Source of the DNA: Spirochaetia bacterium
GTDB taxonomy: Bacteria; Spirochaetota; Spirochaetia; SZUA-6; Bin103
NCBI GenBank assembly: GCA_965203055.1
Contig: OZ241863.1
Coordinates: forward strand, 1,184,001-1,248,000
Reading direction: 5' to 3'
DNA length: 64,000 nt
Of this stretch, positions 41,534 to 62,785 are shown piece by piece. A program made the translations under genes and the position numbers. Every line of letters starts with the position of its first letter. Position 1 is the first letter of the stretch. Under the pieces are notes generated by a model, which did not search any database, had not been told where the DNA came from, and saw only the letters and a list, made by a program, of their open reading frames with translations.

Positions 41534-41548
41534 TCGCGCGGGTGAGGG

Positions 41549-41845: not shown

Positions 41846-42593
41846 CCCGGTTCTCGGTCAACAGCCGCTTGGCCAGTTCCACGCACGCCACCGCGTCCTT
41901 GCCGTAGCCGTCGGCTCCCATGTCGTCCGCGAACTCCTGGGTCACCGGCGCGCCGCCCACCATGATCTGCACGTCGTCGCGCAGGTCGGCGTCGATGAAC
42001 GCTTCGATGGTGCGCCCCATGTTGGGCATGGTGGTGGTGAGCAGCGCGGACATGCCCATCAACTCCGCCTCGTGCTCCTCGACCGCGTCGAGAAACTCCT
42101 CCGGCGCCGTATCCACCCCCAGGTCGATCACCTCGAAGCCGGCGCCGCGCAGCATCATGATGCACAGGTTCTTGCCTATGTCGTGCAGGTCGCCCTTCAC
42201 CGTGCCCATGATCACCTTGGCGATCGACTCGATGCCGGACGCCGACAGGATCGGTTCGATATGCGCCATTCCCGCCTTCATCGCCCGCGCGCAGGACAGC
42301 ACCTCGGGCACGAAGATGATGTTCTCCCGGAACTTGATGCCGACGATGCCCATGGCGGAGATCAGGCCGTCATCCATTATCTCGGTGGCTTCGACGCCGC
42401 GCTCCAGTTGCGCGCGCGTCATCTCGTCCACCAGGCCGTCCTCGCCTTCGATCAGGCCGGCCGCGATTTCCTGCAGCTCGGGGCGCACCGGCGCGAAGAT
42501 GTCGATCATCCGCTGGCGCTCGTCCGGGCGCTCCACGAATTGTTCGATCTCTTCGCGGATGAAGTCGTTGCTTACGTCGCTCAACTCTGCCAT
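41838..42593 (-). CDS. Corrinoid (cobalamin-binding) methyl-carrier protein
   Basis: Cap domain 'FVPEV', B12 motif 'GDLHDIGKN', 'MSALLTTT', 'MVGGAPV'. Confidence 0.93.
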   Translation of the reverse strand: MAELSDVSNDFIREEIEQFVERPDERQRMIDIFAPVRPELQEIAAGLIEGEDGLVDEMTRAQLERGVEATEIMDDGLISAMGIVGIKFRENIIFVPEVLSCARAMKAGMAHIEPILSASGIESIAKVIMGTVKGDLHDIGKNLCIMMLRGAGFEVIDLGVDTAPEEFLDAVEEHEAELMGMSALLTTTMPNMGRTIEAFIDADLRDDVQIMVGGAPVTQEFADDMGADGYGKDAVACVELAKRLLTENRDD

Positions 42594-42601
42594 TTCGGGG
42601 T

Positions 42602-44445: not shown

Positions 44446-45204
44446 CTAATCGGAGTCGCTGCCGCGCTCCCGGCGCAACAAGGCTTCCAGTTCGGCCACC
44501 CGTGCTTCCGCGGCTGCGCGGGCTGCCGCTTCCTGCCGGCGGGCTGCCGCCTCCTGCGCGAGGCGCAGCTCCGCGGCTTGCCGCCCCTGCCGTTCGCGCT
44601 CCCGCGCGGCGTCGGTTTCGTCGAGGTCCGGCAGCTCCTGCCCGCTCTGCGGATCGTAGAAGCGCAGCCCGCGATCCGTCAGCCGCAACTCCAGCCCCAG
44701 CGCCGCGCTCGCCAGCGCCAGCGTGCCGTCCGCCAACTCCCTGCCCGGCAGCCGCCGATACTCCCCCGCAACCAACTCCAGGCCCTGCAGCGGCGGCTCC
44801 AGATAGTCGCCCGTCGGGTCGTATTGCCAGTACTCCGGCACGCCCAGCGTCTGGTACACCGCGCGCTTCTTCCCCTGGTCCTCGCGGTACGTGGTCCGCG
44901 AGGTTATCTCCAGCACGAAGTCAGGGCACTTGGGCTCCATCCACAGCCGGTAGCTCGAACGATCCTCGTTGGCCGCGCCGAACACCACGAACACGTCCGG
45001 CGCCACCACCGCGCCCGGAACTCCCTCCTCGTAGTAGATCAGCAGGTTGCCGGAAACGTACACGTCGCGGCGGCGGCGAAAGTGGCGCCGCAGCCGTCCG
45101 ACGGCGTACATCAGCGGGGTGCGTTGAAAATCGCTTTCCGCCATCGGCTTGCCGTCGGACGAGGGGTAGCGCACCTTGGCGGGCGCGAGCAGCGGACTGG
45201 CCAT
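44446..45204 (-). CDS. Uma2 family endonuclease, second paralogue
   Basis: 'VAPDVFVVFG', 'PDFVLEITS', 'EYWQYDPTGDYLEPPL' shared with 10968-11774. Confidence 0.92.
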   Translation of the reverse strand: MASPLLAPAKVRYPSSDGKPMAESDFQRTPLMYAVGRLRRHFRRRRDVYVSGNLLIYYEEGVPGAVVAPDVFVVFGAANEDRSSYRLWMEPKCPDFVLEITSRTTYREDQGKKRAVYQTLGVPEYWQYDPTGDYLEPPLQGLELVAGEYRRLPGRELADGTLALASAALGLELRLTDRGLRFYDPQSGQELPDLDETDAARERERQGRQAAELRLAQEAAARRQEAAARAAAEARVAELEALLRRERGSDSD

Positions 45205-48019: not shown

Positions 48020-48044
48020 GGTGCTCTGTCGTGGAGGATGACCG

Positions 48045-48476
48045 GTGAGTGACATCTACAGCGCTGCGAAACGAAGCGAGATCATGAGCCGGGTGCGCTC
48101 GACCGGAACCAAGCCGGAGATGCTCGTTCGCCGACTCGCCCATAGCCTGGGGTACCGCTTTCGCCTGCATCATGACGGCCTTCCCGGCAAGCCTGACCTC
48201 GCATTTCCCCGTCACCGCAAGGTAATCTTCGTCCATGGCTGCTTCTGGCATCAGCACGAACGATGCGCCAAGGCAACAATCCCGGCTTCCAACCACGCCT
48301 TCTGGGAGCGGAAACTGTCCGGAAACGTAGAACGGGACCGGCAAAACGTGGCGTCATTGTGTCGGAGCGGCTGGCAGACCTTGGTAATATGGGAGTGTGA
48401 GACGAGAGACCGCGACGCGCTCGCCACCCGCGTCCGTGCCTTCCTCGAATTCCCGGCATTGAGATGCGAGACGTGA
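48045..48476 (+). CDS. vsr: Very short patch repair endonuclease
   Basis: 'RSEIMSRVRSTGTKPE', 'LPGKPD', 'FVHGCFWH', 'VIWECE'. Confidence 0.95.
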   Translation: MSDIYSAAKRSEIMSRVRSTGTKPEMLVRRLAHSLGYRFRLHHDGLPGKPDLAFPRHRKVIFVHGCFWHQHERCAKATIPASNHAFWERKLSGNVERDRQNVASLCRSGWQTLVIWECETRDRDALATRVRAFLEFPALRCET

Positions 48477-49537
48477 ATCCCGGCGTCAAGGTATTCGATT
48501 TCTTCTCCGGCTGCGGAGGAGCAAGCTGCGGGTTTCGTGCCGCCGGCATGGAAATCGTGTACGCGCTTGACCGCGACTCCGACTCCGCACGCACGTTCCA
48601 GATAAACTTCCCGTCATCATATTTCGAGCGTAAGGATATTCAGGAGGCGTCCGTCGATACGGTGCGCCGCTTGATCGATGACCTAAGACCGGCCCCGATC
48701 CTGTTCTGCGGTTGCGCGCCATGTCAGCCGTTCACCAAACAGAACACCACGCGACCGGAACCGGATAAAGACGATCGAATTACATTGCTTTCTCACTTCG
48801 CCCGCTTCATCGAAGAATGCAATCCTGACATCGTATTCGTCGAGAACGTGCCTGGTCTACAACGCCCGAACGGCTCACAGCCCTTTGCCAGTTTCCTGGA
48901 TACCCTCGAAGCCTCCGGCTATCAGTCTAAGTATGACGTGGTACCGCTCATGCGGTACGGTGTGCCGCAGAGCCGGCGCAGGCTCATGATGCTGGCGAGT
49001 CGTCACGGACCGATCGAACTGCCTCCGGAGACGCACGGACCGGGGACCGATAATCCGCGGTACGAGACGGTGAAGGACTGGATCGGAGAACTTCCCCCGA
49101 TCGCTGCCGGGGAAAGCCATCCGCAAGTCTCTGATCATCGAGCGGCGAGCCTGTCGCAGCGCAATCTGGAACGGATACGCGCGACACCGGAGGGTGGCGG
49201 ACACCGCGGTTGGCCAAGACACCTGAAACTTCCGTGTCACGAAAAGAGCGGGGGATACAGCGACGTCTACGGCCGGATGTCATGGGATCGTCCGGCCGCC
49301 GGGTTGACGACACGCTGCATCAGTTACTCCAATGGACGCTTCGGACACCCGGAACAGGATCGCGCGATTAGCTTGCGTGAAGCCGCGTCATTGCAGACGT
49401 TTCCGCTTGATTTCGTGTTCACGGGAGGTTTCGGATCGATGGCGCGGCAGATCGGCAACGCGGTGCCGGTGCGGGTGACACAAGTGATCGGAAACCATGT
49501 CAACGGACACCTGAGAGATGTGAAGGTGCCGGCGTAG
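48464..49537 (+). CDS. DNA (cytosine-5) methyltransferase
   Basis: 'DFFSGCGG', 'APCQPF', 'ENVPG', 'PQSRRR', 'REAASLQTFP', 'QIGNAVP'. Confidence 0.95.
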   Translation: MRDVNPGVKVFDFFSGCGGASCGFRAAGMEIVYALDRDSDSARTFQINFPSSYFERKDIQEASVDTVRRLIDDLRPAPILFCGCAPCQPFTKQNTTRPEPDKDDRITLLSHFARFIEECNPDIVFVENVPGLQRPNGSQPFASFLDTLEASGYQSKYDVVPLMRYGVPQSRRRLMMLASRHGPIELPPETHGPGTDNPRYETVKDWIGELPPIAAGESHPQVSDHRAASLSQRNLERIRATPEGGGHRGWPRHLKLPCHEKSGGYSDVYGRMSWDRPAAGLTTRCISYSNGRFGHPEQDRAISLREAASLQTFPLDFVFTGGFGSMARQIGNAVPVRVTQVIGNHVNGHLRDVKVPA

Positions 49538-49538
49538 A

Positions 49539-52517
49539 ATGGCGACCTTCAAGACCAGCGCCAGAACGCTCGACATGCTCGGTCGCCAACAGATAGCGGG
49601 GATTCCAACGGCGATCAGCGAGCTATTCAAGAACGCGCACGACGCGTACGCCGACCGGGTAGAGATCGACTACTACCGGAGCGACGGGCTGTTCGTGCTG
49701 CGCGACGACGGCATCGGCATGACCAAGGCCGAGTTTACTGAGCGATGGCTTACCATCGGTACCGACAGCAAGGTCGACCCTCAGAAACGGAGCGGTCTTC
49801 ATCATTCCTCCGGCAGGCCACGACGGCCGATATTGGGAGAAAAAGGTATCGGTCGCCTGGCGATCGCCACGATCGGCCACCAGGTGCTGGTACTGACGCG
49901 CGCCAAACGCAACGGTACGTTGTCGGACCTGACGGCGGCGTTCATTAACTGGAGTATCTTCGCGTGCCCGGGAATAGACCTCGACGACATTCGTATTCCG
50001 ATTCGCAGTTTTCGCGGCGGAGAGTTGCCGAACGCCGAGGAGGTGGCCGAGATGGTTGCCGACTTCCGGCACGGTATTGGGCGACTGAAAGCAAGGATCG
50101 ACCGTGATCACTACGAGCGCATCGAGCGTGAATTGGATCGATTCAAGGTCGATCCTCAGGACATCGATGGCTACCGTCGCGCTCCGACGCTCCGCGCATC
50201 AGGGGCCGGCACGCACTTCATTCTGCTTCCGGCTTCCGATCTGCTCGCTGAAGACATTGACGTTGATCCTAGTGTCGATAAAGAGCCTCGACTGACGAAA
50301 GCGCTGCTGGGCTTCGCGAATACCATGTCGATCGACAAGCGGGAACCGGTCATCCGTACCGCCTTCAGAGACCATAGATCGAATGTGCTCTGCAATGACC
50401 TGATCACTGAGCGTAAGTTTTTCACTCGGGAAGATTTTCGCAACGCGGATCATCAGGTAACCGGAAAGTTCGACGAGTATGGTCAGTTTACCGGTCGCGT
50501 AGCGATATACGGAGATACGATCGAGGACCACGTCATACCCTGGCGCAATCCGGACGGACGGCCTACGGCGTGCGGTCCGTTCGACATCAGTTTCGCCGCG
50601 GTCGAAGGAGAGGCCAGACATTCCACGCTTCCGCCGGAGGAACACGCGTCGATCGTGGACAAGACCAATCGGTTGGGCGGTCTGTACATATTTCGTGATG
50701 GCATCCGTATTCTGCCGTACGGGGATACCGACTACGACTGGCTCGACATCGAGTTTCGACGGACGAAGAGCGCCTATTACTACTATTTCTCTCACCGCAA
50801 GATGTTCGGGGTCGTGGAAATCGATTCCGAGCGCAACGGCGGTCTTCACGAGAAGGCCGGCAGGGAAGGCTTTCGAGAAAACAAGGCATATCGTCAGCTC
50901 CGTAGTATCTTGCGCAACTTCTTCGTGCAGATGGCAGCCGACTTCTTTCGCAAGGAAGGCGCGCACAGCGATCGTTTCGAGACGCGGAAGGCGGATCTGG
51001 AGAAGACGGAGATGGACCGGCGGCGGCGGGAAAGACTCGTTTCCGTGAAGCGCCGCCGCATGATGGATGACCTCGGCACGTTTTTCGCGCGGGTGGAGCG
51101 AGGTGAGCCGGAGGACCGGGCACTGCGGCTGAGCCAGAACGTCGAGGACCAACTACGGAACGCGCTTCGCATGGAAGATCCACAACAGGCGGCGCAGGAG
51201 ATCATACGCATCGAACGGAGCGCTGCGGCTGACCTGCGTGACCTGGAGGCGCGCTATCGCGTAGCGCGGCCGAAGGTCGCTTTGACCAAGGCACTGCAGC
51301 GGGAGTGGCGCGCGTACACTGCCGCGTCCGCCGAGCTCGAGACCAATGTATTTCGGGAAACACGGGAATCGATCGAGGATCTCATCAGCGACGAGGCGGA
51401 GAAGGCCCGCCTGGAACTCGATCATCGGCTGCGGATGGAGACGACCCTCAACGAACTTGCGGAACACGCCAGGAAGGAGACGCGCCACCGCGGAGCCGAG
51501 GCGCGACGCAAAGCCGACTCGATGGCGCATGAGGTGCGCACAGCGGCGACGGCGTGCATCAGGGAGGTCGAGTCGGCATTGCGGTCCGTAGTCGTCGACT
51601 TCCAACGCACGGAGTTGTCATCGTTCGAAAACGATGAGTTCCGGCGTATACGCGAGCGGTGGGAATCGAATATACGCGAGGTGTGGGAGAAACGGTCGAC
51701 GCGCCTCGAATCGATTCGGTCGCAGCTCGAGGCAATAGATCTGAGCGGTGCGGCGTCGACGCTGGAGGACCAGCTCGTTGCCGTCGAACAACGAAACGTG
51801 CTGCTGGAGGAGGAAGCGGCCGTCGATCTCCAGCTAGCTCAGCTTGGCATGGCGGTCGAGATCATAAACCACGAATTCCGGGCTACGGTCGGTTCGCTGC
51901 GCAACAATCTGCGGGGACTCAAGGCGTGGGCGGACGTGAACCCGGGACTCAAAGGGCTCTATCGGAACATACGGGCCAGCTTCGATCATCTTGACGGGTA
52001 CCTTACGCTGTTCACGCCGCTGCATCGACGGCTCTACCGCAAGGAGGTCGAGATCCTCGGTTCGGAGATATACACCTTCCTGAAGGATCTGTTCAACGAA
52101 CGGCTTGCGCGCCATGACGTGAGGATGTCACGGACCGACGCCTTTTCCGAATCCGTGACGATAGGCTACCCGTCATCCTTCTACCCGGTGTTCGTCAATC
52201 TGGTCGATAACGCGATCTTCTGGCTGTCGCAACGGAACCCTACCGAGGAGCGGACCATCGAACTCGATGCCGCGCAAGGAGCGTTTATGATAAATGACTC
52301 AGGTCCCGGCATACCTCGACGAGACCGGGAGGCGATCTTCGAATACGGTTTCACCAGGAAGCCCGGCGGACGAGGGATGGGCCTAGCCATATCCCGCGAG
52401 ACGCTACACAGGGTAGGCTATGATCTCACGCTGGCAGAACCCGCGGCGAACGGCGGAGCGACGTTCCTGATTAGTCCACACAATACGCACAAGGAGCGAA
52501 CCAACGGTGCCAAATAA
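49539..52517 (+). CDS. MORC-like GHKL ATPase fused to a C-terminal histidine kinase
   Basis: N-terminal 'ELFKNAHDA', 'DDGIGM', 'GEKGIGRLA'; coiled coil; C-terminal H-box 'INHEF', 'NLVDNA', 'DSGPGI', 'GRGMGL'. Confidence 0.85.
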   Translation: MATFKTSARTLDMLGRQQIAGIPTAISELFKNAHDAYADRVEIDYYRSDGLFVLRDDGIGMTKAEFTERWLTIGTDSKVDPQKRSGLHHSSGRPRRPILGEKGIGRLAIATIGHQVLVLTRAKRNGTLSDLTAAFINWSIFACPGIDLDDIRIPIRSFRGGELPNAEEVAEMVADFRHGIGRLKARIDRDHYERIERELDRFKVDPQDIDGYRRAPTLRASGAGTHFILLPASDLLAEDIDVDPSVDKEPRLTKALLGFANTMSIDKREPVIRTAFRDHRSNVLCNDLITERKFFTREDFRNADHQVTGKFDEYGQFTGRVAIYGDTIEDHVIPWRNPDGRPTACGPFDISFAAVEGEARHSTLPPEEHASIVDKTNRLGGLYIFRDGIRILPYGDTDYDWLDIEFRRTKSAYYYYFSHRKMFGVVEIDSERNGGLHEKAGREGFRENKAYRQLRSILRNFFVQMAADFFRKEGAHSDRFETRKADLEKTEMDRRRRERLVSVKRRRMMDDLGTFFARVERGEPEDRALRLSQNVEDQLRNALRMEDPQQAAQEIIRIERSAAADLRDLEARYRVARPKVALTKALQREWRAYTAASAELETNVFRETRESIEDLISDEAEKARLELDHRLRMETTLNELAEHARKETRHRGAEARRKADSMAHEVRTAATACIREVESALRSVVVDFQRTELSSFENDEFRRIRERWESNIREVWEKRSTRLESIRSQLEAIDLSGAASTLEDQLVAVEQRNVLLEEEAAVDLQLAQLGMAVEIINHEFRATVGSLRNNLRGLKAWADVNPGLKGLYRNIRASFDHLDGYLTLFTPLHRRLYRKEVEILGSEIYTFLKDLFNERLARHDVRMSRTDAFSESVTIGYPSSFYPVFVNLVDNAIFWLSQRNPTEERTIELDAAQGAFMINDSGPGIPRRDREAIFEYGFTRKPGGRGMGLAISRETLHRVGYDLTLAEPAANGGATFLISPHNTHKERTNGAK

Positions 52518-54081
52518 CTTCGATGAACGATGCCGGGAGATCGCAAGACGGTTTCTCGTCAGCGCGGTGGTCGTGGATGACCAGCCGTATTACGGCGGAA
52601 CGGAGCCGGTCGGACCTCTGCGAACGCCAAGCCGCACCGATCGGACGGTTGGCGACGAGAAACCGCCGGGACGCGGCGGCGGTCAGAGCCTGGACGCGGG
52701 CGCGATTACGGATTCGTTCTCCAAGGTCGGTCTCATTTGCGGAGTCGTCAAGCCCGCAGATGACGGGGACGTCGACGCGGCGGCGGTCAGGCGTGCGGAT
52801 CTGCTCGTGATCGACTGGCAATTGCAAGATGACAGTGGCACGCGAGCTCTGAAACTGATCAATTCGATCTTGGAAGGCGATCAAGGCCAACGGCTCCGCT
52901 TGATAGCCGTGTATACCGGAGAGCCGGATATCGCCGGGATCGGAGAGCAGATAAATAAGAAGTTGTGTAATCGATACGATCTTAAGAGTGGAACGAGGGA
53001 CCATCCCGTTACGCTATCTTGCGGACATTGCCGCATCGTAATCTATGCGAAGCTGGGTACGCAGTTGAATCAGGAACTTATGAATTGGGCGGTAAGCGAA
53101 GCAAACCTTCCGGATCTGCTGATCGATGACTTTGTGCGGATGACGACGGGACTCGTGCCGAGTATTGCGCTCGTCGCGCTGACCGCGGTCCGCGAAAACC
53201 CACATCAAGTACTGGACAAGTTCGACAGCAGACTCGATGCGGCGTTCCTCGCGCATCGAGCGTGCCTTCCCATCCCGGATGATTCAGGGCAGCACATGGT
53301 GGCTCAGATCGCGAGTGAATTACGCGCTATTATGGAGGAGGAGGTCGGCCGGGATCCGCCGAAGTGGATGGAAGCGATAAAATTGTGGATCGAGAAATTC
53401 AAGGGTAGCGGGGATATTGTGTTCGAGGACGAACGGGTTCCTCAGAAAGGCGTGCTCGATATGCTTGAGAGGGGAGTAGACGCTACGAAGGTGCGCAGTA
53501 ACAGGAAACGTGAGCGTCCGCACCTTTGGCTGACAGACGGCTTTGTCCGCTCCGACGATCCGAAAGATATCGATCGCCGACTTGCGTGGCTAATGTGCTT
53601 TCGGGCCATTGATCCGCCGGACAAGAGGCTCTGGCTGGGTACCGCCGTGCGGAGATGCGGATACTCCGATTGCGAGGAGCTTCTGCTATGCATGAGGCCG
53701 AGATGCGACAGCGTGCGGATGAAGGGAGCGGAATCGTTCCTCTTTCTGCCGCTGCTGATCGATCCTAAGCCGGGTAAGTTTCAGCTTGTGGTGCGATCGA
53801 GTGCGAAGGGTCCAAAGTACTGCCCGGTCAGTGTAGACACGGACATGTCGCGGTGGAAAATGATCGAGTTCGAGCCCGATCCGACCGCCAAGGCGGTCGT
53901 CGCGCAGAAGGAGGAGAACGGGTCGGCCGGGTACGTCTTCACGGACGTATGTGGCAAGCGATACGAGTGGATCGGGGAATTGAAGACGGAGGTCGCGCAC
54001 AGCGTGGGGCAGACCCTCGGGTCCACGCTGTCGCGCATCGCTTTGGACAGATCCGAGTGGCTCAGGAGATCGGAGCGTTGA
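52507..54081 (+). CDS. Receiver-domain protein with long uncharacterised C-terminus
   Basis: 'AVVVDD', phospho-acceptor 'LLVIDWQL', 'AVYTG'; C-terminal 'PRCDSVR'; overlaps kinase stop. Confidence 0.8.
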   Translation: MPNNFDERCREIARRFLVSAVVVDDQPYYGGTEPVGPLRTPSRTDRTVGDEKPPGRGGGQSLDAGAITDSFSKVGLICGVVKPADDGDVDAAAVRRADLLVIDWQLQDDSGTRALKLINSILEGDQGQRLRLIAVYTGEPDIAGIGEQINKKLCNRYDLKSGTRDHPVTLSCGHCRIVIYAKLGTQLNQELMNWAVSEANLPDLLIDDFVRMTTGLVPSIALVALTAVRENPHQVLDKFDSRLDAAFLAHRACLPIPDDSGQHMVAQIASELRAIMEEEVGRDPPKWMEAIKLWIEKFKGSGDIVFEDERVPQKGVLDMLERGVDATKVRSNRKRERPHLWLTDGFVRSDDPKDIDRRLAWLMCFRAIDPPDKRLWLGTAVRRCGYSDCEELLLCMRPRCDSVRMKGAESFLFLPLLIDPKPGKFQLVVRSSAKGPKYCPVSVDTDMSRWKMIEFEPDPTAKAVVAQKEENGSAGYVFTDVCGKRYEWIGELKTEVAHSVGQTLGSTLSRIALDRSEWLRRSER

Positions 54082-54100: not shown

Positions 54101-55141
54101 GTGACCGCCCTGCCGCTTGGCCTGTTGCGGACGCTGCAGGCCGCCGCGCCGGCGGAGGCGTGGCGGGCGCTGTTGGGGTTCGTGTGGGAACTCTGCTCGC
54201 CGGCGCTGTCCGGGGACGCCGCCGAAGTGACGCGGCGCGACCGCGCCGCGGCGCCGGCGGACCTGTTTCTGGCGACCGCCGGCTGGGACCTCTGGACCGA
54301 GTACTACGCCAGCGTGCCGCGTACCGCCGAGCGGCTGGCCGCGTGGTGGGCGGCGACCGCGCCGGGCCGCGCGGTGCTGATCCTCGACGCGCTGTCGCTG
54401 CGGGAAGCGCCCTGGTTGCTGCACGGCGCCGCGCAGCGCGGCTACGCCGTGCACGCCGCGGCGGCGACCGGGGCCGAGCTGCCGGCCGACACCGGCCCGT
54501 TTGCCCGCGCCCTGGGGTTCGGGCAGCGCTCGGCGCTCGAAAACGACGGCGCCGGCGGCGCGCACCGGCTGCCGGGCGCCCGCACCGACAGCGTCGATCT
54601 GCCGTGGCGCGACTGCGTTGAACTGATCGACGCGGCGCCGGACTGGGTGCTGTGGCACCACTGGCCGGATGACCGCATCCACGGCCTGAGCGTGCCGGGG
54701 CGGGGGCTGGAGGCGCTCGCCGCGGATACCGCTGCGCAGCTTGCCGGCGACGACTTCTGGGCGCTGGTCGAGCGCTTGACCACCGGCCGGCGGCTGGTGG
54801 TGACCGGCGATCACGGCTACGCCGCCACCGGCTTGTTCCCCGACGCCGCCGACCGGGAACAGACCCGCTATCTGCGAGCGCGCTTCAAGAGCGGGCGGTC
54901 CGCGCCCTCCACGCCTGAAGGGGCCACGCCGGACGGCGCCGCGGCGGACGGCGCCGCGCCGGGCGGCTGGGCGCCGCCGCTGGATGCCGTGGTGGAGACG
55001 CCGCACGGCCGGCACGCGTTCGTGCTCGGCCGGCGCAAGTGGCGGAGCCGGGGCGGCTACCCGACGCTCGCTCACGGCGGCCTGTCGCTGCTGGAGGTCG
55101 CGGTGCCCTTCATCGAGCTGTCGCGGCCCGGCGGGACCTGA
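54101..55141 (+). CDS. Short PglZ-like alkaline-phosphatase-superfamily protein
   Basis: 'VLILDALSLRE', 'VVTGDHGY', 'HGGLSLLEVAVP'. Confidence 0.78.
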   Translation: MTALPLGLLRTLQAAAPAEAWRALLGFVWELCSPALSGDAAEVTRRDRAAAPADLFLATAGWDLWTEYYASVPRTAERLAAWWAATAPGRAVLILDALSLREAPWLLHGAAQRGYAVHAAAATGAELPADTGPFARALGFGQRSALENDGAGGAHRLPGARTDSVDLPWRDCVELIDAAPDWVLWHHWPDDRIHGLSVPGRGLEALAADTAAQLAGDDFWALVERLTTGRRLVVTGDHGYAATGLFPDAADREQTRYLRARFKSGRSAPSTPEGATPDGAAADGAAPGGWAPPLDAVVETPHGRHAFVLGRRKWRSRGGYPTLAHGGLSLLEVAVPFIELSRPGGT

Positions 55142-58100
55142 AGATCGACCTGCGGATGCCGGCACGCAACGGAACCACGAAAGCGGCGCGGCTGGCCGCG
55201 GAGATCGCCCGGGCGGTGGACGCCGGCCGGCCGCGGGCGCTTCCCACCGTGGACTTCGCCGATCCCGATCGCCCGCGGACCTGCCTGGAGGTCGACTTTC
55301 CGATCCTGCCGGTGAATCAGGTGGCGGCCATCGAGGGCAACGCCGGCAAGCCGATCTACCAGATGTCGAAGTGGTGGGCGCGGCGGCGGTCGAGCGTGTT
55401 CCGGGCGCTGCTGATCGCCGCCGCGGCCAAGGCGCCGGACGATCCGGCCGCCGCGGCAAAGCAGGTCTGGGACGCCTACTACGGCAATCACTCCGAGGGC
55501 GGCGCGTTCGCCGGTCTCAAGGTCGCCGACCTGTTCATGGGCGGCGGCACCACCATCGTCGAGGGCGCCCGCCTCGGCATGGAGATGTACGGCACCGATC
55601 TCAACCCGGTCGCCTGGTTCGTGGTCCGCAACGAGCTGGCCGAGGTCGAGCGGTCCGAGGTGGAGGCGCTGCTCGCCGCGGTCGAAGCCGAGGTGCGCCC
55701 GGCGATCATGCCGTTCTACGCCTGCGACTGTCCGCGCGGCCACTCTGGAACCTGGACCCGGCGCGCGACCGGCGAGGCGATGGGACCGGAGTTCGATCCG
55801 CTGGCGCTGCGCCCGGAGCAGCGGGCCGAGTACGACTACGCCGGCCCCGAGGCGATCTACGTGTTCTGGGCCAAGCACGGCCCCTGTCAGGTGACCGGCT
55901 GCGGCCACCGCACGCCGATCATCACCGCCCCGGTCATGGCCGTGAAGACGCTCACCGTGAACGCCTGGGCGCACCGCTGCCGCGCTTGCGGGCGCCCGTT
56001 CGAGGTGGAGGAGCAGGACGCGCGCATGGCGCCCGGGGCGCCGCTGGTCGCCGCCGCGTCGGAGGCCGCCTACGCGGTGCGGCAGGCCGACTTCTCGGTG
56101 CGCTGCCCGCACTGCGCGGCCTGCGAGCCCGTGGTCTCCCCCGACCGCACGCCGCGGCGCAAGAAAGTCGAGCTGGCGCTGTTGATTCATCCGCAATGGC
56201 TGGCCGGGGAGGCCGGGCGGGCGGCGGACGGCGCGCGCTACGGCGGCTCGGTAGCCGACGACGCCGCGTCCACGGTCCGGTGGAACGGCGCCCGCGCCGC
56301 CCGCCTGCGGCTGCTCGAAGTGCGCGGCCCGCTGCCGGAGGAGGTGACCTGCCCGGAGACCGGCCAACGCTTCAAGACCGGCAAGGCGGGCGGCACGGTC
56401 CCGGCGAAGTCGCGCTTCGCGTGCGGCGCCTGCGGCACGGTGCAGGACGTGTTGACCGCGATCAAGGCGTCCGGCGCCACCGGCCCGGTCGCCGCCTACG
56501 CGCTGCAGGGGTATTGCCCGACGTGCGCCGAGGAGCGGCGCCCCTACCGCGGGCGGTTCTTCGCCGCGGTCGACGACCCGCGCCGCTTCGACGCCGCGGC
56601 GCGCGAGTGGGAACGGCGCAAGGAGCAGGACCTTGCGGCCTGGTGGCCGCGTCAGGAGGTCCCGTACGGCTACATGACCGGGATGGCCAACGGCGACATT
56701 CGCCAAGGCCATGGTTTCACTCACTGGTGGACGATGTTCAACCCGCGCCAGCTCCTGGTCCACACCCAGTTGCTGCGCGCCATCGTCGCCGCGGAACCGG
56801 AGCGCCATCGGTGGCCGGCGCGCGAATACGTGCTCGGCGCGTTCCAACAGTACCTGCGCAACCAGAGCATGTTTTCGTTCTGGCATCGTGCGCGCGATCA
56901 CTTCGCTCCCGCCCTTTCCAACAGCAACTATCATCCAAAGGACATATCCGTCGAGGTGGGGGTTTACACGGGCGTGGGCTACGGTACTTGGCCGTCTACC
57001 TACTCACGCCTTATCGATGCGTCTGAGTGGGCCGGGGCGCCGTGGGAGGTCGTGGCCAATGCGCGCCTGCGCCAGCAGGCGCCGGCGCTGCGGGACCGGC
57101 TCGCCGGCAAGAGCGAGAAGGTGTTTCCCGCGGATCCGGTACGCGGGCGGCGGGCAACGCTCGAGTGCCGGTCGGCGACCGACTTGGCCGGCATCCCGGA
57201 CGAGGCCTACGACTTGGTGGTCACCGATCCGCCGTTCGGCGGTCTGCTGCACTATAGCGAGCTGGCCGACTTCTTCTACGTCTGGCTGCGGCTGGCGCTG
57301 CGCGACCGCTATCCCGATCGGTTCACGGCCGAACACACCCCCAAGAGCCTGGAGGCGGTGGCCAACCGGGCGCGCCACCCGGATGCTCCCGACGCCTTCT
57401 ATCGGCGCCTGCTGACCGCCTGCTGGCGGGAGGCGGCGCGCATCCTCAAGCCGGGCGGGCTGCTCACGTTCACCTTCCATCACAGCGAGGACGCGCCGTG
57501 GGTGGCGGTGCTGGAGAGCCTGTTCGACGCCGGCTTCTACCTGCAGGCGACCTATCCGATTCGCAGCGACGAGACCAAGGGGAGGGGCGAGTTTGGCTCC
57601 AAGAAGATCGAGTACGACATCATCCACGTATGCCGCAAGCGCCGGGAGGAACCGCCGCGGGTGAGCTGGGCCCGGATGCGCCGCCAGGTGCTGGCCGACG
57701 TGCGCCACCTGCAGGCCCTGCTGGAGCTGCACCGGCGGAACGGGCTGCCGGAGGCCGACCTGCAGGTGATCCGGCGCGGCAAGGCGCTGGAGTACTTCAG
57801 CCGCCACTACGGCCACGTGTACGTCAACGTGGGCGAGCCGATGTCGGTGCAGGAAGCACTGCGGGGAATCAACCAGCTCCTCGACGAGGAACTGGGCGGC
57901 GCCGGCGATCCGCCGCCGCCCGCCGCCGAGCCGTTCACGCGCCAGTTCCTGCGCCTGTTCGACGGCCGCACCGAGGTGCCGCGCGACCAGCTCCAGAAGT
58001 TGCTGCGCGGCACCGGCAGCGCGCCGGGAGACTTCGCGGAGCGCGGCTGGTGCCGGCAGGAGACCCGGGTCTACCACCTCGTGCCGCCGCGGGAACTGGC

Positions 58101-58404
58101 GCAGGCCCGGATCGACAACCCCGCCGGCATGGTGAGCGACTACGACCAGGCGGCGTTCCTGATCGGCGCCTGCTGCGACGACAGCGGCATCAACGTCACC
58201 GCTACGCTCGACAACGGCAACTTCGCCCAGCATCCCGCCCTGGGCGCGCTGCTCGACTGGTTCGCGCGCCGCGGCGCGACTGACGAGACCCGCACCGCGG
58301 CGGACCGGGCGCGCCGCCTCCTGCGCGACTGGAACGCCCGCAACCGCGACCGGCGCCGCGACCCGCAGCGCGAACTGTTCGTCGACCAGGAAGCGGCGTC
58401 GTGA
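55138..58404 (+). CDS. DUF1156-type adenine DNA methyltransferase with zinc ribbons
   Basis: 'SKWWARR', motif I 'DLFMGGGT', motif IV 'TDPPFG', 'YSELADFFYVW', several CxxC pairs; start CTG 55138 or ATG 55156. Confidence 0.85.
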   Translation: MKIDLRMPARNGTTKAARLAAEIARAVDAGRPRALPTVDFADPDRPRTCLEVDFPILPVNQVAAIEGNAGKPIYQMSKWWARRRSSVFRALLIAAAAKAPDDPAAAAKQVWDAYYGNHSEGGAFAGLKVADLFMGGGTTIVEGARLGMEMYGTDLNPVAWFVVRNELAEVERSEVEALLAAVEAEVRPAIMPFYACDCPRGHSGTWTRRATGEAMGPEFDPLALRPEQRAEYDYAGPEAIYVFWAKHGPCQVTGCGHRTPIITAPVMAVKTLTVNAWAHRCRACGRPFEVEEQDARMAPGAPLVAAASEAAYAVRQADFSVRCPHCAACEPVVSPDRTPRRKKVELALLIHPQWLAGEAGRAADGARYGGSVADDAASTVRWNGARAARLRLLEVRGPLPEEVTCPETGQRFKTGKAGGTVPAKSRFACGACGTVQDVLTAIKASGATGPVAAYALQGYCPTCAEERRPYRGRFFAAVDDPRRFDAAAREWERRKEQDLAAWWPRQEVPYGYMTGMANGDIRQGHGFTHWWTMFNPRQLLVHTQLLRAIVAAEPERHRWPAREYVLGAFQQYLRNQSMFSFWHRARDHFAPALSNSNYHPKDISVEVGVYTGVGYGTWPSTYSRLIDASEWAGAPWEVVANARLRQQAPALRDRLAGKSEKVFPADPVRGRRATLECRSATDLAGIPDEAYDLVVTDPPFGGLLHYSELADFFYVWLRLALRDRYPDRFTAEHTPKSLEAVANRARHPDAPDAFYRRLLTACWREAARILKPGGLLTFTFHHSEDAPWVAVLESLFDAGFYLQATYPIRSDETKGRGEFGSKKIEYDIIHVCRKRREEPPRVSWARMRRQVLADVRHLQALLELHRRNGLPEADLQVIRRGKALEYFSRHYGHVYVNVGEPMSVQEALRGINQLLDEELGGAGDPPPPAAEPFTRQFLRLFDGRTEVPRDQLQKLLRGTGSAPGDFAERGWCRQETRVYHLVPPRELAQARIDNPAGMVSDYDQAAFLIGACCDDSGINVTATLDNGNFAQHPALGALLDWFARRGATDETRTAADRARRLLRDWNARNRDRRRDPQRELFVDQEAAS

Positions 58405-58922
58405 ACCTGCAGCAGGGCGACGTCTGGAAGCGGCGCGGCTGCTCCCTGCTGTGGGACGCCGCCGCCCTGGCGGCGGTGACCGCGCCGGCCGCGGTCGCCT
58501 CGCTGCGGCAATTCTTCGCCATGACCCGCGCCTGGCCGAGGGAGCTGCCGGGCGCCGGCGGCGACGCGCTGGTGGTGGCCGGCGTGGAGGGGTGTCTGGA
58601 CGCCCTGAGCGGCGCCGACGGCCGGACCTGGCTGGAGACCGACCTCAAGCCGGCCCTGCTGAGCTTCCAGGATGAGTATGAGGGGCAGGCGGCGCTGATC
58701 CTGTGGCTGCCGTCGGGCCGCAGCCGCATCCGCATGGTCACCGCCACCGAGGAGTACTTCTGGCACGACGACCGCGCCGCGGCCTCCGGCGGGCTGCCGC
58801 TCGGCCGCTGCCTGTGGGCCGGCGCCGAGTCGGACGCGGCGCGCATCATCGTCTCCGCCGCGCCGCAGCCCGATGTCGACGGTCCCGCCTGGGCCGGCCT
58901 CTACCACCCGCGCCTCTCATGA
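58401..58922 (+). CDS. Hypothetical protein of the DUF499/DUF1156 operon
   Basis: GTGA-coupled to the methylase; 173 aa alpha/beta pattern. Confidence 0.75.
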   Translation: MNLQQGDVWKRRGCSLLWDAAALAAVTAPAAVASLRQFFAMTRAWPRELPGAGGDALVVAGVEGCLDALSGADGRTWLETDLKPALLSFQDEYEGQAALILWLPSGRSRIRMVTATEEYFWHDDRAAASGGLPLGRCLWAGAESDAARIIVSAAPQPDVDGPAWAGLYHPRLS

Positions 58923-58968
58923 CGGGCTATATTGAGTGACACGTGCAGGTAAGATAGAGGAGATACAA

Positions 58969-59895
58969 GTGTCGAAACTGTTTGACAATGCCGTCCAGTC
59001 GATCAAACTTGGGCTTGAGGACTATGAAGCGAACGACCCGACGCGGACGCTGTCTGCAATTCGCAACTTCTATGCAGGCCTGCTGCTACTCTCAAAGGAA
59101 GTCCTTGTACGGGCCGTACCCGGTGCCGATGAATGGGATGTTATAGCTGCCAATTATAAGCCCAAGCGCAACAGAGCAGGCGTCATAAAATATGTCCCAC
59201 GAGGCAAGGTCAGTATCGACCTGAATGGTATCGGGGAACGCTTTAACGACTTTGGATTGAATATTGACAAAGAGGCGCTGAAAAAGATCGGTAATATTCG
59301 CAATAATGTCGAGCACTACTTCTCGACGGAGAAGAACGATTCCATGCGATTGTTGATCGCCGCAGCGTTCCCCGTTGCCTACGAGTTGTTTCTTCAGGCT
59401 GGTGAAGAACCCCATCAAGTCCTAGGAGACGCGTGGGAGACGATGTTGGAAGAACGTACGATCTACGATAAGGAACAGAACGAGTGTTCTAAGACATTCT
59501 ACAAGATCGACTGGGTATCCGATATCTTGTCCACCGTACACTTGGTTTGCCCGGAGTGCCAGTCCGATTTGGTGGCACAAAAAGACAGCGGAAACACGAA
59601 TAAACAAGAGATTGATGCTGAATGTCGCTCGTGTGAAGTGACGATCAGCGCCGAAAGGTTGATCCAAAATATGGCTATTCATCTGGATAGTGGCGATGGA
59701 ACTTTGCGGACGTGTCCAGAATGTAGCTTAGCTACCTACATCATGAATGACGATGGCAAAGACGAAATCGGATGTGTTTGGTGCGAATGTAAGCTGGGTA
59801 ATTGCAAATCCTGCGACAGTAAACTAACGCCGGATTACGTTGGTGAACGTAACGACCTGTGTTTTTACTGCGAATATAATCTGGAAGGGGACTAA
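58969..59895 (+). CDS. Putative HEPN-like nuclease with C-terminal zinc ribbons
   Basis: GAGGAG RBS; helical N-domain with RxxxxH 'RNNVEH'; six CxxC pairs; markedly AT-richer than flanks. Confidence 0.7.
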   Translation: MSKLFDNAVQSIKLGLEDYEANDPTRTLSAIRNFYAGLLLLSKEVLVRAVPGADEWDVIAANYKPKRNRAGVIKYVPRGKVSIDLNGIGERFNDFGLNIDKEALKKIGNIRNNVEHYFSTEKNDSMRLLIAAAFPVAYELFLQAGEEPHQVLGDAWETMLEERTIYDKEQNECSKTFYKIDWVSDILSTVHLVCPECQSDLVAQKDSGNTNKQEIDAECRSCEVTISAERLIQNMAIHLDSGDGTLRTCPECSLATYIMNDDGKDEIGCVWCECKLGNCKSCDSKLTPDYVGERNDLCFYCEYNLEGD

Positions 59896-59969: not shown

Positions 59970-62756
59970 GTGCGCCACGCCGAGTTCGGCGACGGAGTGG
60001 TGATCGGCGCGGTGCGCGGCGGGTACCTGCGGGTATTCTTCGGCGACGGCGAACGGGAGATCCCGGTCGCGGCCGCCCTGCCATCCGTGCCGCGGGCCGA
60101 GCGCGTGCTGGCGGGAGTGGAGGGGAGCGCGGAGCGCCTGCGGCAGGCGTGGCTGGCGTGCGAGGCGCATGCGCTGCCGCTGGCGGAGAACGCCGCGGCG
60201 TTGACCGCGGCGCCGATCGACCTGCTCCCGCACCAGATCGTCCTGACCCACCGGATCGCGACCGCCTCGCCGCGGCGTTACCTGATCGCCGACGAAGTGG
60301 GGCTGGGCAAGACCATCGAGGTGGCGCTGCTGCTGCGCGAGCTGGCCAGCCGCGGCGAGCTGCGCCGCGCCTTGATGGTGGTGCCGGCCGGACTGGTCAA
60401 TAACTGGCACCGGGAACTCAACGAGGTCTTCAACCTGCAGTTCGAGGTGTTCGGCAGCGAGGGCGACGTCACCGACCGCAAGTCGAACGCGTTCGCCAGG
60501 CACGACCGGCTCATCGCCAGCATCGATACCCTGAAGCGGCGCGCCCGGGTGCGGCGCCTGCTCGCTGCGCCGCGCTGGGACCTAGTGGTGTTCGACGAAG
60601 CGCACCACCTGACGGCGCAGCGCTCCGGCCGCACGGTGCGCAAGACCGCGAACTACAAGCTGGCCGAGGCGTTGAAGAACCACGCCCGCGATCTGATCCT
60701 GCTGTCCGCCACGCCGCATCAGGGCGACCACTTCCGCTTCTGGATGCTGGTGCAGCTCCTCAACCCGACGTTGTTCGCCGGCCCCGGCGAGATGGTGGCG
60801 CAGCGCCATCGCCTCAATACGGTCGTGCTGCGCCGCACCAAGGCCGACGCCTGCCGCCCGGACGGCTCGCCGCTGTTCGCGCGCCGCGGGGTGCACACCG
60901 AATCGTTCACCATGACCGGCGCCGAGCGCTCCTTCTACGGCGCGTTGCGGGAATACCTGGAAGAGGGGTTCGCGCTGGCGCAGCGGCAGGGCAATCAGGG
61001 GCGCGCCCTCGGCTTCGTCATGACCATCTTCCAGAAGATCGCCGCCTCCAGCTTCGCGGCCGTGCGCCGCACGCTGCGCCGCCGCTTGCTGATGCTCACC
61101 CTGCACGAGGCGATCCTCAAGGACCGGGAGCTCGACCTCGACGCCCGCACCGCGCTGCACGACGAAGCGCGCGACCTGATCCATGAGGATCAGCGCATCC
61201 CGCGCGGCGATCCGGTGTCCCGCGGCCGCGCGGACGCCGTGCTGGCCGACCTCAAGGTGCGCCTGCTCAAGCGCCTGGACGAGGAGGAGCTGGCCCGCGC
61301 GTCCGACGCCGGCGCGGGCGAGGAGAGCGCCGCGGCCGGCGAGGACGCCGCCGCCATGGCGGTCAACCTGGCGCTGCCGGAGGAACGCCTGCGCATCCGC
61401 GACCTGCTGGCGCGCTTTCCGGAGACGCGCGAAACCAAGGTCGCCAAGCTGTTGCGCGGCCTGGGCGCGCTGTGGGAGCAGAATCCGCGCGAGAAGGTGG
61501 TGATCTTCGCCACCTATCTCGGCACGGTCGAGCTGCTCGGCGCCGAGATCGAGCGCGCCTGTCCCGGCCAGGGCGTGGTGGTGCTGCGGGGCGGGGACCA
61601 CGGCGCCAAGCTGGCCGCCGAACGCCGCTTCCGCCGCGCCGACGGGCCGCGCGCGCTGGTCTGCACCGCCGCCGGGCGCGAAGGCATCAACCTGCAGGTG
61701 GCGCGCGTGCTGTTCAACTTCGATCTGCCGTGGAATCCGATGGACGTCGAGCAGCGCATCGGGCGCATCCATCGCTATGGCCAGCAGCACACGGCGCAGG
61801 TCTACAACCTGGTGCTGTCGGACACCATCGAGGGCCGCATCTTCCTGCTGCTCAAGGACAAGTTGGAGGAGATCGCGCGCACGCTTGGCAAGCTCGACGA
61901 GCAGGGCAACGTCGCCGAGGACCTGCGCACGCAGATTCTGGGGCAGCTCGCCGAGCGGCTCACCTACGACGCCCTCTACCGGGAGGCGCTCTCCGACCCG
62001 GAGCTGCGGCGCACCCGGCAGGAACTGGACGCCGCCATGGCCAACGCCAGCGAAGCGCGCAAGGTGGTGTTCGAGCTGTTCCAGGACCTGGACCGGTTCT
62101 CCCTCGACGACTACCGCCCGTTCGCCAACGTGGACGCCGGGTTCGACCGCATCGTTCGCTTCCTCGGCGCCGCGCTGGCGGAACAGGGCCAGTCGCTGCG
62201 GCGGCTCGACGGAACCACGTTCGCACTCGTCTCGGGGGAGGTCACCGAGGAGGCGCGGTTCACGACCGATCGGGAGCAGGCCCGCGCGCAGGAAGATCTG
62301 GAACTGATCGGCCTCGACCATCCGCTGCTGGTGGCCGCGCTGCGCCGCTGGCAGCGCCTGGAGCCGGAGCAACTCGGCGCCGCGGTGGCCGGCGGCGTGG
62401 AAGCCGGCGGCGCGGCGGGCGGGAACGGCGCGGCGGTCGTCTCGTGGTGGTCGATCCGCATCGACGGCGGGGACGGCGAGCGCCGCTCGCTGGTGCAGCC
62501 GCTGGCCGTCGCCGCCGACGGCCGGCGCCTCCCGCAGTTGGAACGCGAAGGCGCCGGCCTGTTCCGGCGCGCCCCCGGCCCGCCGGCCTTGGCGCCGGCG
62601 CAGCGGCGCGCGCTGTTGCGCGACGCCCTGGAGCCGATGATCCGGCGCGAGCTGGACCAGCGCGGCCTGGTCACCGCCGCCGGCGGCTACACCGCCAAGC
62701 TGGTCGGCTGGATCGAACTTGCCGGCAACGGCGCGGCGGGACAGGGGCCAGGTTAA
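59970..62756 (+). CDS. SNF2/RapA-like helicase
   Basis: 'IADEVGLGKT', 'FDEAHH', 'LSATP', 'EGINLQ', 'EQRIGRIHRYGQ'; true start may lie slightly upstream. Confidence 0.92.
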   Translation: MRHAEFGDGVVIGAVRGGYLRVFFGDGEREIPVAAALPSVPRAERVLAGVEGSAERLRQAWLACEAHALPLAENAAALTAAPIDLLPHQIVLTHRIATASPRRYLIADEVGLGKTIEVALLLRELASRGELRRALMVVPAGLVNNWHRELNEVFNLQFEVFGSEGDVTDRKSNAFARHDRLIASIDTLKRRARVRRLLAAPRWDLVVFDEAHHLTAQRSGRTVRKTANYKLAEALKNHARDLILLSATPHQGDHFRFWMLVQLLNPTLFAGPGEMVAQRHRLNTVVLRRTKADACRPDGSPLFARRGVHTESFTMTGAERSFYGALREYLEEGFALAQRQGNQGRALGFVMTIFQKIAASSFAAVRRTLRRRLLMLTLHEAILKDRELDLDARTALHDEARDLIHEDQRIPRGDPVSRGRADAVLADLKVRLLKRLDEEELARASDAGAGEESAAAGEDAAAMAVNLALPEERLRIRDLLARFPETRETKVAKLLRGLGALWEQNPREKVVIFATYLGTVELLGAEIERACPGQGVVVLRGGDHGAKLAAERRFRRADGPRALVCTAAGREGINLQVARVLFNFDLPWNPMDVEQRIGRIHRYGQQHTAQVYNLVLSDTIEGRIFLLLKDKLEEIARTLGKLDEQGNVAEDLRTQILGQLAERLTYDALYREALSDPELRRTRQELDAAMANASEARKVVFELFQDLDRFSLDDYRPFANVDAGFDRIVRFLGAALAEQGQSLRRLDGTTFALVSGEVTEEARFTTDREQARAQEDLELIGLDHPLLVAALRRWQRLEPEQLGAAVAGGVEAGGAAGGNGAAVVSWWSIRIDGGDGERRSLVQPLAVAADGRRLPQLEREGAGLFRRAPGPPALAPAQRRALLRDALEPMIRRELDQRGLVTAAGGYTAKLVGWIELAGNGAAGQGPG

Positions 62757-62785
62757 GGTATGCTGCCGTCCATGCGGGAGGCTCC

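Follow-up and report, generated by a model that had tools for sequence, protein, structure and literature searches.

Histidine kinases of the HEF_HK family and their partners of the Response_reg_2 family were described as a pair in 2021, in a computational work by Bellieny-Rabelo et al. (PMC8011034). The two genes were linked in 91.6% of 644 regions, and the predominant architecture ("group 1") combines HATPase_c_3, HEF_HK and HATPase_c domains without membrane segments; the Response_reg_2 proteins carried no other known domain. C5 cytosine methylases and the very-short-patch endonuclease Vsr were enriched nearby, an origin from paraMORC ATPases was proposed, and a signalling role tied to restriction-modification (R-M) systems was put forward as a speculation. 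A literature search for experimental follow-up of the pair found only this paper and incidental mentions. The present analysis concerns a four-gene cassette that includes such a pair, located at positions 48045-54081 of a 64,000-nucleotide (nt) stretch of contig OZ241863.1 from a Spirochaetia bacterium; this whole stretch is referred to as the window, and all coordinates are positions in it.

An earlier reading of this DNA, made from the letters alone and called here the original prediction, had pointed to the cassette as a possible methylation-gated two-component defence and implied that it was novel; the pair, its linkage to C5 methylases and Vsr and the paraMORC origin had already been published in the 2021 paper. 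New with respect to that paper are the identification of an Hma-like host operon with empty sites, evidence that the module requires no further gene, two fold assignments and a pattern of methylase loss. The reading favoured here, tentatively and short of calling it probable, is that of an autonomous, mobile, methylation-marked immunity cassette, in which a DNA-clamping ATPase-kinase phosphorylates an effector.

The cassette and its proteins

All four open reading frames (ORFs) of the cassette lie on the + strand, in the order Vsr, C5 methylase, 992-aa ATPase-kinase and 524-aa receiver protein (Table 1). They are tightly coupled, as had been noted from the sequence: Vsr and methylase overlap by 13 nt, methylase and kinase are separated by 1 nt, and kinase and receiver overlap by 11 nt. 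The visibly lower GC content of the region was also borne out by a sliding-window analysis, proposed in the original prediction as a check, which gave 0.567-0.628 in 1-kb windows over 48000-53999 versus 0.67-0.76 on both sides, the whole window being at about 70%; GC content at third codon positions (GC3) is 0.68-0.72 in the cassette genes and 0.91-0.95 in the genes of the surrounding backbone operon.

Enzymes of the Vsr family repair the T:G mismatches left by deamination of 5-methylcytosine, and Vsr is an optional accessory of the cassette. The C5 methylase is its presumed self-marking component. The alignment of the 357-aa protein contains all of FxGxG, PCQ, ENV, QxRxR and GNAVP, the standard C5-methyltransferase motifs, and residues 181-290, between QxRxR and the C-terminal motifs, are conserved across 70 sequences.

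The 992-aa protein has the features that had been ascribed to it, namely two GHKL-type domains, here recognised by Pfam, an intact H-box and no membrane segment. The H-box (H778-E779-F780, the phospho-His H778 being encoded at 51870-51872) is invariant in 42 homologues, and so are the N-terminal Bergerat motifs (E28, N32, D56/G58/G60 and G100-G105) and the N, G1 and G2 boxes of the kinase (N887/D890/N891, D920/G922/G924 and G943-G948); the best 19-residue Kyte-Doolittle mean is 1.18, with no window >=1.6. The profile of the kinase core matches the solved HisKA-type kinase 3a0r over residues 755-978 (E 4.8e-10). The T/N at His+4 that is associated with phosphatase activity is absent, the sequence being H778-E-F-R-A782; a 2026 preprint on HisKA profiles likewise states that PF19191 lacks this residue.

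From an alignment of 71 sequences, AlphaFold2 gave a model of residues 1-520 with a predicted local distance difference test score (pLDDT) of 79.3 and a predicted template modelling score (pTM) of 0.78. Its top PDB match by Foldseek is human MORC2 with DNA (9cdh, E 1.3e-10), followed by Hsp90/TRAP1, the GyrB 43 kDa structure, SMCHD1 and MORC3/4, over 440-530 aligned columns; the E values for MORC2-DNA, Hsp90, GyrB and SMCHD1 range from 1e-10 to 1e-8. The model indicates that the N-terminal half is a GHKL and S5/transducer ATPase module with a fold of the MORC2/Hsp90/GyrB type. The MORC-like label given to it in the original prediction is fair at the level of the predicted fold; by sequence, it goes no further than a generic GHKL domain, as a profile search of the PDB found Hsp90-family chains at E ~3e-3 and no MORC match. 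Since Hsp90, GyrB and SMCHD1 score almost as high as MORC2, the specific analogy with MORC proteins is not established. The fold match covers nearly all of residues 1-520, and thus leaves no room for a nuclease domain there. An assignment as a BbrUII/HgiDII restriction enzyme was rejected: the NCBIfam model NF050001 matches residues 7-124 only, with 70 bits against a cut-off of 550 (E 1.2e-19).

The linker that follows is the least conserved stretch of the protein, and gives only weak PDB matches, to helical proteins; E, R, K, D, Q, A and L make up 65% of its residues 500-745, which contain 3 Pro and 4 Gly. Across the system, conservation is highest in the GHKL-S5 half and the DHp domain.

In the receiver protein the phospho-acceptor Asp is intact, as had been stated: D103 (codon 52813-52815) is invariant in 129 diverse homologues together with D24, D98, W104 and K182, and D25 and T137 are at least 90% conserved. 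Kinase N/G1/G2 boxes and receiver acidic pocket, Thr and Lys are the residues of a classical two-component pair. The Foldseek matches of the receiver domain, to NtrC1, HupR and DgcR, are all weak (E 0.048-0.088). Beyond it, the original prediction had seen a C-terminus of no known family; this holds for the approximately 335-aa tail, as Pfam, PADLOC and NCBIfam gave no match after residue ~190, and the receiver family profile found 0 matches in the PDB at E<=10. The tail comprises a helical region with the conserved R229, D244, H250, R251 and E271, a variable α/β region at residues 301-370, a β-barrel at residues ~375-510 with the loop C395-P398-C400-D401-R404, and the terminus SEWLRR. Among the 129 homologues D244 and G378 are invariant, and R229, H250, R251, E271, C395, P398, C400, D401, R404, R510, E517, W518 and R520 are at least 90% conserved; SEWLRR is the most conserved short stretch of the tail and residues 301-370 are the most variable. 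The presence of so many conserved polar residues suggests catalysis or a specific interaction.

Structure prediction of the tail, which had been proposed as a check, was successful in part. The full-length model (pLDDT 72, pTM 0.45) shows good confidence in the receiver domain and at residues ~290-510, but is poor at 33-58, 221-286 and 510-524; a Foldseek search with it gave no match at E<=1e-3 in either PDB or BFVD. The best class of matches for the barrel and the C-terminal helix, in both databases, is MazF/PemK, with probabilities of 0.90-1.00 and TM-scores per target of 0.54-0.66 at weak E values (0.027-0.14 in the PDB and 0.019-0.065 in BFVD). The matches include MazF toxins from several species, such as 5cqx_B in the PDB (E 0.027, probability 0.99), and the PemK/MazF protein A0A3G6JHC3 in BFVD (probability 1.00, TM-score per target 0.64, E 0.037). 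Membership of the MazF/PemK family was rejected by sequence profiles: neither PemK (PF02452) nor CcdB was found by Pfam at E<=10 in any of 75 receiver tails (0/75), where only scattered chance matches occurred, e.g. Flu_M1 in 11 and DUF6593 in 7, and an hhalign comparison of the aligned tails with 25 MazF sequences gave a probability of 0.1%. As sequence methods give no backing, the MazF/PemK-like barrel is kept as a hint at fold level and not as an assignment.

Neither Pfam nor Foldseek revealed a helix-turn-helix or other DNA-binding family in the tail, and its look-up in the ESM Atlas returned unnamed clusters only (0.89-0.90), which are uninformative. A PD-(D/E)xK reading of P257-D259...E271 was discarded, as this segment is modelled, with low confidence, as a helix and has H or R instead of K at the third motif position. 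A conserved hydrophobic stretch, VRMTTGLVPSIALVALTAV, is found at residues 210-228 (53134-53190), directly after the receiver domain and beside the low-confidence, most conserved part of the tail; its length is insufficient for a membrane helix and its 19-residue Kyte-Doolittle mean of 1.61 is borderline, but it could be a buried or partner-binding helix.

Conservation of the trio and loss of the methylase

In a 90%-clustered set, 490 relatives of the receiver protein were found at E<=1e-3; clustered at 50% identity, its family comprises 2095 representatives, of which 1197 reach E<=1e-30. The best 150 of the 2095 representatives all have E <=6e-104; most of these are 500-600 aa long and cover the whole profile, and a minority are shorter fragments. 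From a scan of species-representative genomes 80 loci were obtained, whose gene neighbours were called by tblastn; they belong to Acidobacteriota, Spirochaetia, Nitrospirota, Gammaproteobacteria, Alphaproteobacteria, Gemmatimonadota, Rhodothermales, Latescibacterota and other groups. In 79 of the 80 loci, L013 being the exception, the gene directly upstream of the receiver encodes the kinase, and a closely related C5 methylase is found upstream of the kinase in 76/80, the exceptions being L013, L025, L042 and L060, the last at a contig end. Vsr is present in 43 loci, upstream on the same strand in 32 and downstream on the opposite strand in 11; it is absent from the other 37, of which 30 have flanking sequence long enough for certainty. 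In 68 of 75 loci the GC content of the cassette is below that of its flanks.

The original prediction had allowed that homologous modules might always need a separate nuclease, missing here, which would make the cassette a remnant. Clustering of the 1775 ORFs of >=100 aa within 4 kb of the module revealed no further gene, nuclease included, common to the 80 loci; among the neighbours, type I HsdM, found at 22 loci, and HsdR, at 13, make up the largest clusters, and smaller ones contain MmeI/Eco57I-type enzymes, an integrase and transposases. The linkage of the three genes, with no other gene in common, indicates that methylase, kinase and receiver form an autonomous unit, and this trio tends to settle within or next to other R-M and defence operons. 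In several loci type I genes flank the cassette, with HsdM upstream and, in L006, L009, L012 and L015, an HsdR-like gene downstream, an arrangement that parallels its nested position in the window. A chance origin of the arrangement is excluded by bit scores far above the cut-offs and by a gene order that recurs in 76-79 of the 80 loci, in unrelated phyla.

The ratio of nonsynonymous to synonymous substitution rates (dN/dS) was obtained by comparison with three related islands. For Vsr it is 0.16-0.21 and for the methylase 0.15-0.26; the kinase is the slowest gene (0.13-0.22) and the receiver protein the fastest of the four (0.35-0.41). The values, from 0.13 to 0.41, indicate that all four genes are under purifying selection and that none is a remnant; the four cassette genes are functional. 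Components that face an adversary often evolve fast, as the receiver protein does here. The difference in dS between cassette and backbone was not used as evidence of separate histories, since the backbone, given its very high GC3, has little freedom at synonymous sites.

Three methylase-less loci have full upstream sequence, L013, L025 and L042. In L025 an ISL3 transposase gene stands in place of the methylase and of kinase residues 1-432; in L042 the first 14 residues of the kinase are replaced, with a stop codon just before the remainder; in L013 the kinase gene is wholly absent. The receiver ORF is intact in all three. An intact kinase N-terminus is therefore missing in 3/3 methylase-less loci, a small sample, and such a co-loss is expected if the ATPase half of the kinase is harmful without the methylase.

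The host operon and its surroundings

The genes on both sides of the cassette belong to a five-gene backbone (Table 1). The original prediction had called the upstream gene DUF499-like, which stands by a narrow margin (25.7 bits), and the downstream gene PglZ-like, which was a mislabelling: none of the ORFs scanned between 54101 and 64000 matches PglZ, and the next gene is a 346-aa ORF, followed by a DUF1156 methylase. The HmaA and HmaB matches and the lack of PglZ identify the backbone as an Hma-like helicase-methylase-ATPase operon and not as BREX. It shares with the Hma candidate system an SNF2 helicase, a DUF1156 methylase and a large ATPase in one operon; it differs in that its DUF499-like ATPase gave no PADLOC HmaC match, in the presence of two additional small genes (of 346 and 173 aa) and of a paraMORC-like gene after the helicase. 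Only the helicase (HmaA) and the methylase (HmaB) of the backbone are recognised by PADLOC. The true start of the DUF1156 gene is probably downstream of 55039; homology to the plasmid counterparts of its product, described below, starts at residues 29-63.

Table 1. Location of the features of the cassette, listed first, and of the host operon
Feature	Position in the window	Strand	Support
Vsr very-short-patch T:G mismatch endonuclease, 143 aa	48045..48476	+	PF03852 100.8 bits; TIGR00632 137 bits (cut-off 97.85)
C5 cytosine DNA methyltransferase, 357 aa	48464..49537	+	PF00145 180.4 bits; TIGR00675 138 bits
992-aa protein, whole ORF	49539-52517	+	PF13589 HATPase_c_3 aa 24-132; PF19191 HEF_HK 768-834; PF02518 HATPase_c 880-980
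Predicted N-terminal GHKL + S5-type ATPase module, aa 1-~475	49539..50963	+	PF13589; AlphaFold2; Foldseek
Helical linker, probably coiled-coil, aa ~477-745	50967..51773	+	model helix 477-519; residue composition
Histidine-kinase core: HEF_HK DHp aa 768-834 and HATPase_c aa 880-980	51840..52478	+	PF19191 100.6 bits (cut-off 24.1); PF02518 67.5 bits
Receiver protein, whole ORF, 524 aa	52507-54081	+	Pfam Response_reg_2 aa 16-185
Receiver domain (Response_reg_2)	52507..53061	+	PF19192 124.4 bits
C-terminal ~335 aa, candidate effector	53074..54081	+	no known family
Backbone gene 1, DUF499-like/AAA_16 ATPase, 891 aa	45344..48019	+	DUF499 25.7 bits (cut-off 23); AAA_16 below cut-off
Backbone gene 2, 346 aa, no known family	54101..55141	+	no Pfam/PADLOC/NCBIfam match; GC3 0.93
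Backbone gene 3, DUF1156 N6-adenine methylase, HmaB-like	55039..58404	+	PF01555; PF06634 below cut-off; PADLOC HmaB 130 bits; NF042963 (DUF1156_antiphage)
Backbone gene 4, 173 aa, no known family	58401..58922	+	library searches without match; plasmid homologue
Backbone gene 5, SNF2 helicase, HmaA/DrmD/BrxH-like	59970..62756	+	PADLOC HmaA 313 bits
PDC-S64 single-gene defence candidate, 319 aa, ~50% GC	58936..59895	+	PADLOC PDLC05058 153.7 bits; GC3 0.55

A tblastn search with the 346-aa protein found the same five-gene backbone, uninterrupted, on plasmid pSR6 of Aminobacter sp. SR38 and on a plasmid of Candidatus Tenderia electrophaga. In the two plasmid operons (L081, 6260-16496; L082, 6272-16576) a DUF499 ATPase, a ~330-aa protein, a methylase of ~1070-1084 aa, a ~170-aa protein and an SNF2 helicase are encoded in this order and contiguously; all five proteins are 44-67% identical to those of the window, and the product of backbone gene 1 (GC3 0.92) is 57-59% identical to that of the first gene of both operons. 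Neither plasmid record contains the four-gene cassette or PDC-S64. The uninterrupted backbone on two plasmids indicates that the cassette is a true insertion, so that the nested position seen in the original prediction is confirmed, and its insertion site is the first intergenic gap of the Hma-like operon. The empty-site search proposed there, for loci in which DUF499 directly abuts PglZ, was successful in its first term only: the DUF499 gene directly abuts the next backbone gene on both plasmids, and that gene encodes ~330 aa and is not PglZ. Homologues of this 330-aa gene were found on 39 plasmid records, mostly conjugative Klebsiella plasmids. The metagenome-assembled loci L001-L003 show the same cassette-in-backbone arrangement, without PDC-S64; the PDC-S64 gene, which lies between the 173-aa gene and the helicase in the window, is missing from L001-L003 and from both plasmids, and constitutes a further insertion into this operon, independent of the cassette.

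A second HATPase_c_3 gene starts directly after the SNF2 helicase (62753-64000, +) and runs off the end of the window; the same gene follows the helicase in L002. Its product aligns to kinase residues 7-466 with 24% identity (E 8e-19), and the two ATPases have in common the motif G-G-x-x-x-x-x-x-G-x-R-x-x-P-Y-G...D-W-L. This alignment with the N-terminal half of the kinase indicates that the island has two paralogous paraMORC-like ATPases. The gene at 44446-45204 (-), a short distance upstream of the operon, encodes a putative restriction endonuclease of the Uma2 family (PF05685 69.8 bits; PADLOC PDC-S03 ~36 bits). Further left, the window contains the gene of a 922-aa protein with AAA-ATPase_like and PDDEXK_9 domains (29743-32511, -) and a UPF0236-family transposase-like gene (35977-37380, -), which suggest that the defence or mobile island reaches further in this direction. 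Between these mobile genes and the defence operon there is a corrinoid-methyltransferase set (39857-43651, -) of ordinary host metabolism, comprising a RACo-type reductive activator (Fer2, Raco_middle and RACo_C_ter), a B12-binding protein and a URO-D/MtaA-like methyltransferase.

Proposed mechanism, alternatives and related systems

According to the reading favoured here, the C5 methylase would mark the host DNA at one conserved target, as its intact motifs and conserved target-recognition region suggest, and Vsr, when present, would repair the T:G mismatches arising from 5-methylcytosine deamination, limiting the mutational cost of this marking. The 992-aa protein may dimerise through its GHKL-S5 module, whose predicted fold is of the MORC/Hsp90 type, and clamp DNA; the module would respond to unmethylated DNA, and the signal could run along the ~250-aa helical linker to the soluble HisKA-type core, leading to autophosphorylation of H778. 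The phosphoryl group would then be passed to D103 of the translationally coupled receiver protein, and the phosphorylated receiver would switch on the 335-aa C-terminal module, the most likely effector. The output might be nucleic-acid cleavage or growth arrest, for which the sole hint is the weak MazF/PemK resemblance of the barrel. A classical nuclease supplied from elsewhere would not be needed. The autonomy of the trio, the purifying selection and the joint loss of methylase and kinase N-terminus in 3/3 loci fit this scheme, and the low GC content of the cassette and the uninterrupted backbones speak for its mobility.

Several points weigh against the proposed immunity cassette. Its central steps, DNA binding, discrimination of the methylation state and phosphotransfer, are ones that we infer, and the paper that described the family is purely computational. 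Neither the 992-aa nor the 524-aa protein contains a nuclease or known effector domain recognisable by Pfam, PADLOC, NCBIfam, PDB profile search or Foldseek, in agreement with the original prediction, which had seen no obvious restriction enzyme; the resemblance of the tail to MazF/PemK is weak, and its most conserved stretch, residues 221-286, is modelled at pLDDT <50. The argument from methylase loss concerns three loci, a small sample. The kinase or the receiver gene is split in 9/80 loci, which could reflect decay or assembly errors. Searches for the receiver protein in mobile elements gave one match among 72,556 plasmid records, a weak one on a Phocaeicola plasmid (27.7% identity), and none among 50,697 phage records. 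Finally, the frequent position of the cassette beside complete R-M systems also fits a regulatory role.

Such a role would be that of a two-component pair sensing an intracellular cue, i.e., the nucleotide pool, DNA damage or the methylation state, with a DNA- or protein-binding tail that controls the adjacent methylase and the host R-M or defence operon like a controller protein. It matches the speculation in the Discussion of PMC8011034, it would account for the repeated occurrence of the cassette in or next to complete systems (the Hma-like operon in the window and in L001-L003, HsdM in 22 loci and HsdR in 13, enzymes of the MmeI/Eco57I type), and the cassette proteins contain no recognisable effector enzyme. 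This explanation is nevertheless considered unlikely, as no neighbour is common to the 80 loci, whereas the methylase is present in 76, no DNA-binding family is found in the tail by Pfam or Foldseek, and the missing kinase N-terminus in methylase-less loci is left unexplained. Alternatively, the MORC-like ATPase might itself be the effector, compacting, entrapping or silencing unmethylated incoming DNA like eukaryotic MORCs, without cutting, with a kinase-receiver arm that would only tune or reset it. The best structural matches are to MORC2 bound to DNA, the GHKL-S5 half and DHp are the most conserved parts, the N-terminus is what is lost alongside the methylase, and apart from the optional Vsr the cassette contains no nuclease; however, Hsp90, GyrB and SMCHD1 score nearly as high as MORC2, the receiver protein is conserved at full length in most of the best 150 of the 2095 representatives, and the near-invariant polar residues of its tail exceed the needs of a simple reset switch, which makes this possibility quite unlikely.

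The joint loss of methylase and kinase N-terminus, together with the tight linkage, the foreign GC content and the nesting in other mobile defence operons, also fits a selfish addiction or epigenetic module, in which the methylase would neutralise a toxic kinase/receiver pair and post-segregational killing would maintain the cassette along with its island. A selfish module in place of antiviral defence appears improbable, however: R-M systems can combine addiction with defence, and the cassette is found in defence islands, not on plasmids or phages. That the cassette is a decayed R-M remnant deprived of its nuclease, as the absence of a recognisable restriction nuclease might suggest, is very hard to sustain: none of the four genes is disrupted, their dN/dS of 0.13-0.41 indicates purifying selection, the trio is kept without a nuclease in 76/80 loci across phyla, and 1197 receiver representatives are found at E<=1e-30, with most of the best 150, all at E <=6e-104, being full length.

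If the immunity-cassette reading is correct, restriction-modification would be joined to two-component signalling. It would also provide the first biochemical role for a prokaryotic MORC-like ATPase as a methylation reader, with bearing on the origin of eukaryotic MORCs. The receiver family is large (2095 representatives), is absent from PADLOC v2 and is a tractable target. The window itself shows clearly, with empty sites as controls, how defence cassettes can nest between the genes of another defence operon.

With respect to known systems, the cassette is a member of the HEF_HK/Response_reg_2 group (PMC8011034), with identical architecture, a soluble pair, an upstream C5 methylase and Vsr nearby, and shows no structural difference from it. 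From a type II R-M system it differs in that no recognisable nuclease-fold endonuclease is partnered to the methylase. With the paraMORC GHKL-S5 ATPases described by Iyer, Abhiman and Aravind (2008, PMC2292703) it shares the intact ATP motifs, the succession of GHKL and S5 domains and the linkage to cytosine methylases and Vsr; those paraMORCs have helicase partners or bear nuclease or TIR tails, whereas the cassette protein carries a coiled coil and a histidine-kinase core and has a receiver partner. An N-terminal GHKL ATPase in a restriction or defence protein is also found in BbrUII/HgiDII (NF050001) and in VcSduA/paraMORC3 (PMC12137116); in VcSduA, the ATPase glutamate is needed for defence and the ATPase is fused to a PD-(D/E)xK nuclease (DUF4263), unlike the cassette kinase, which is without a nuclease domain. 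Detocs (preprint 10.1101/2023.01.24.525353) resembles the cassette in its soluble kinase and in a receiver protein whose usual DNA-binding output is replaced, and it defends only with its conserved His and Asp in place. Its sensor is of the TPR type, its effector is a PNP ATP-nucleosidase, a buffer receiver is present as third protein, and there is no methylase; PADLOC gave no Detocs match for either large protein of the cassette. The cassette differs in the use of a GHKL ATPase as sensor, in the lack of a buffer protein, in its obligatory methylase and in a different candidate effector. That the cassette represents a distinct class of epigenetic immunity, in which a MORC-type clamp, fused through a coiled coil to a kinase-only histidine kinase, reads C5 methylation and signals by one-way phosphorelay to a new effector family, so that self/non-self discrimination of the R-M kind is wired to two-component signalling without a classical restriction nuclease, is at present doubtful. 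For the mechanism proposed above, the validated kinase-receiver-effector defence of Detocs and the GHKL ATPase gating a nuclease in VcSduA are precedents that make it plausible.

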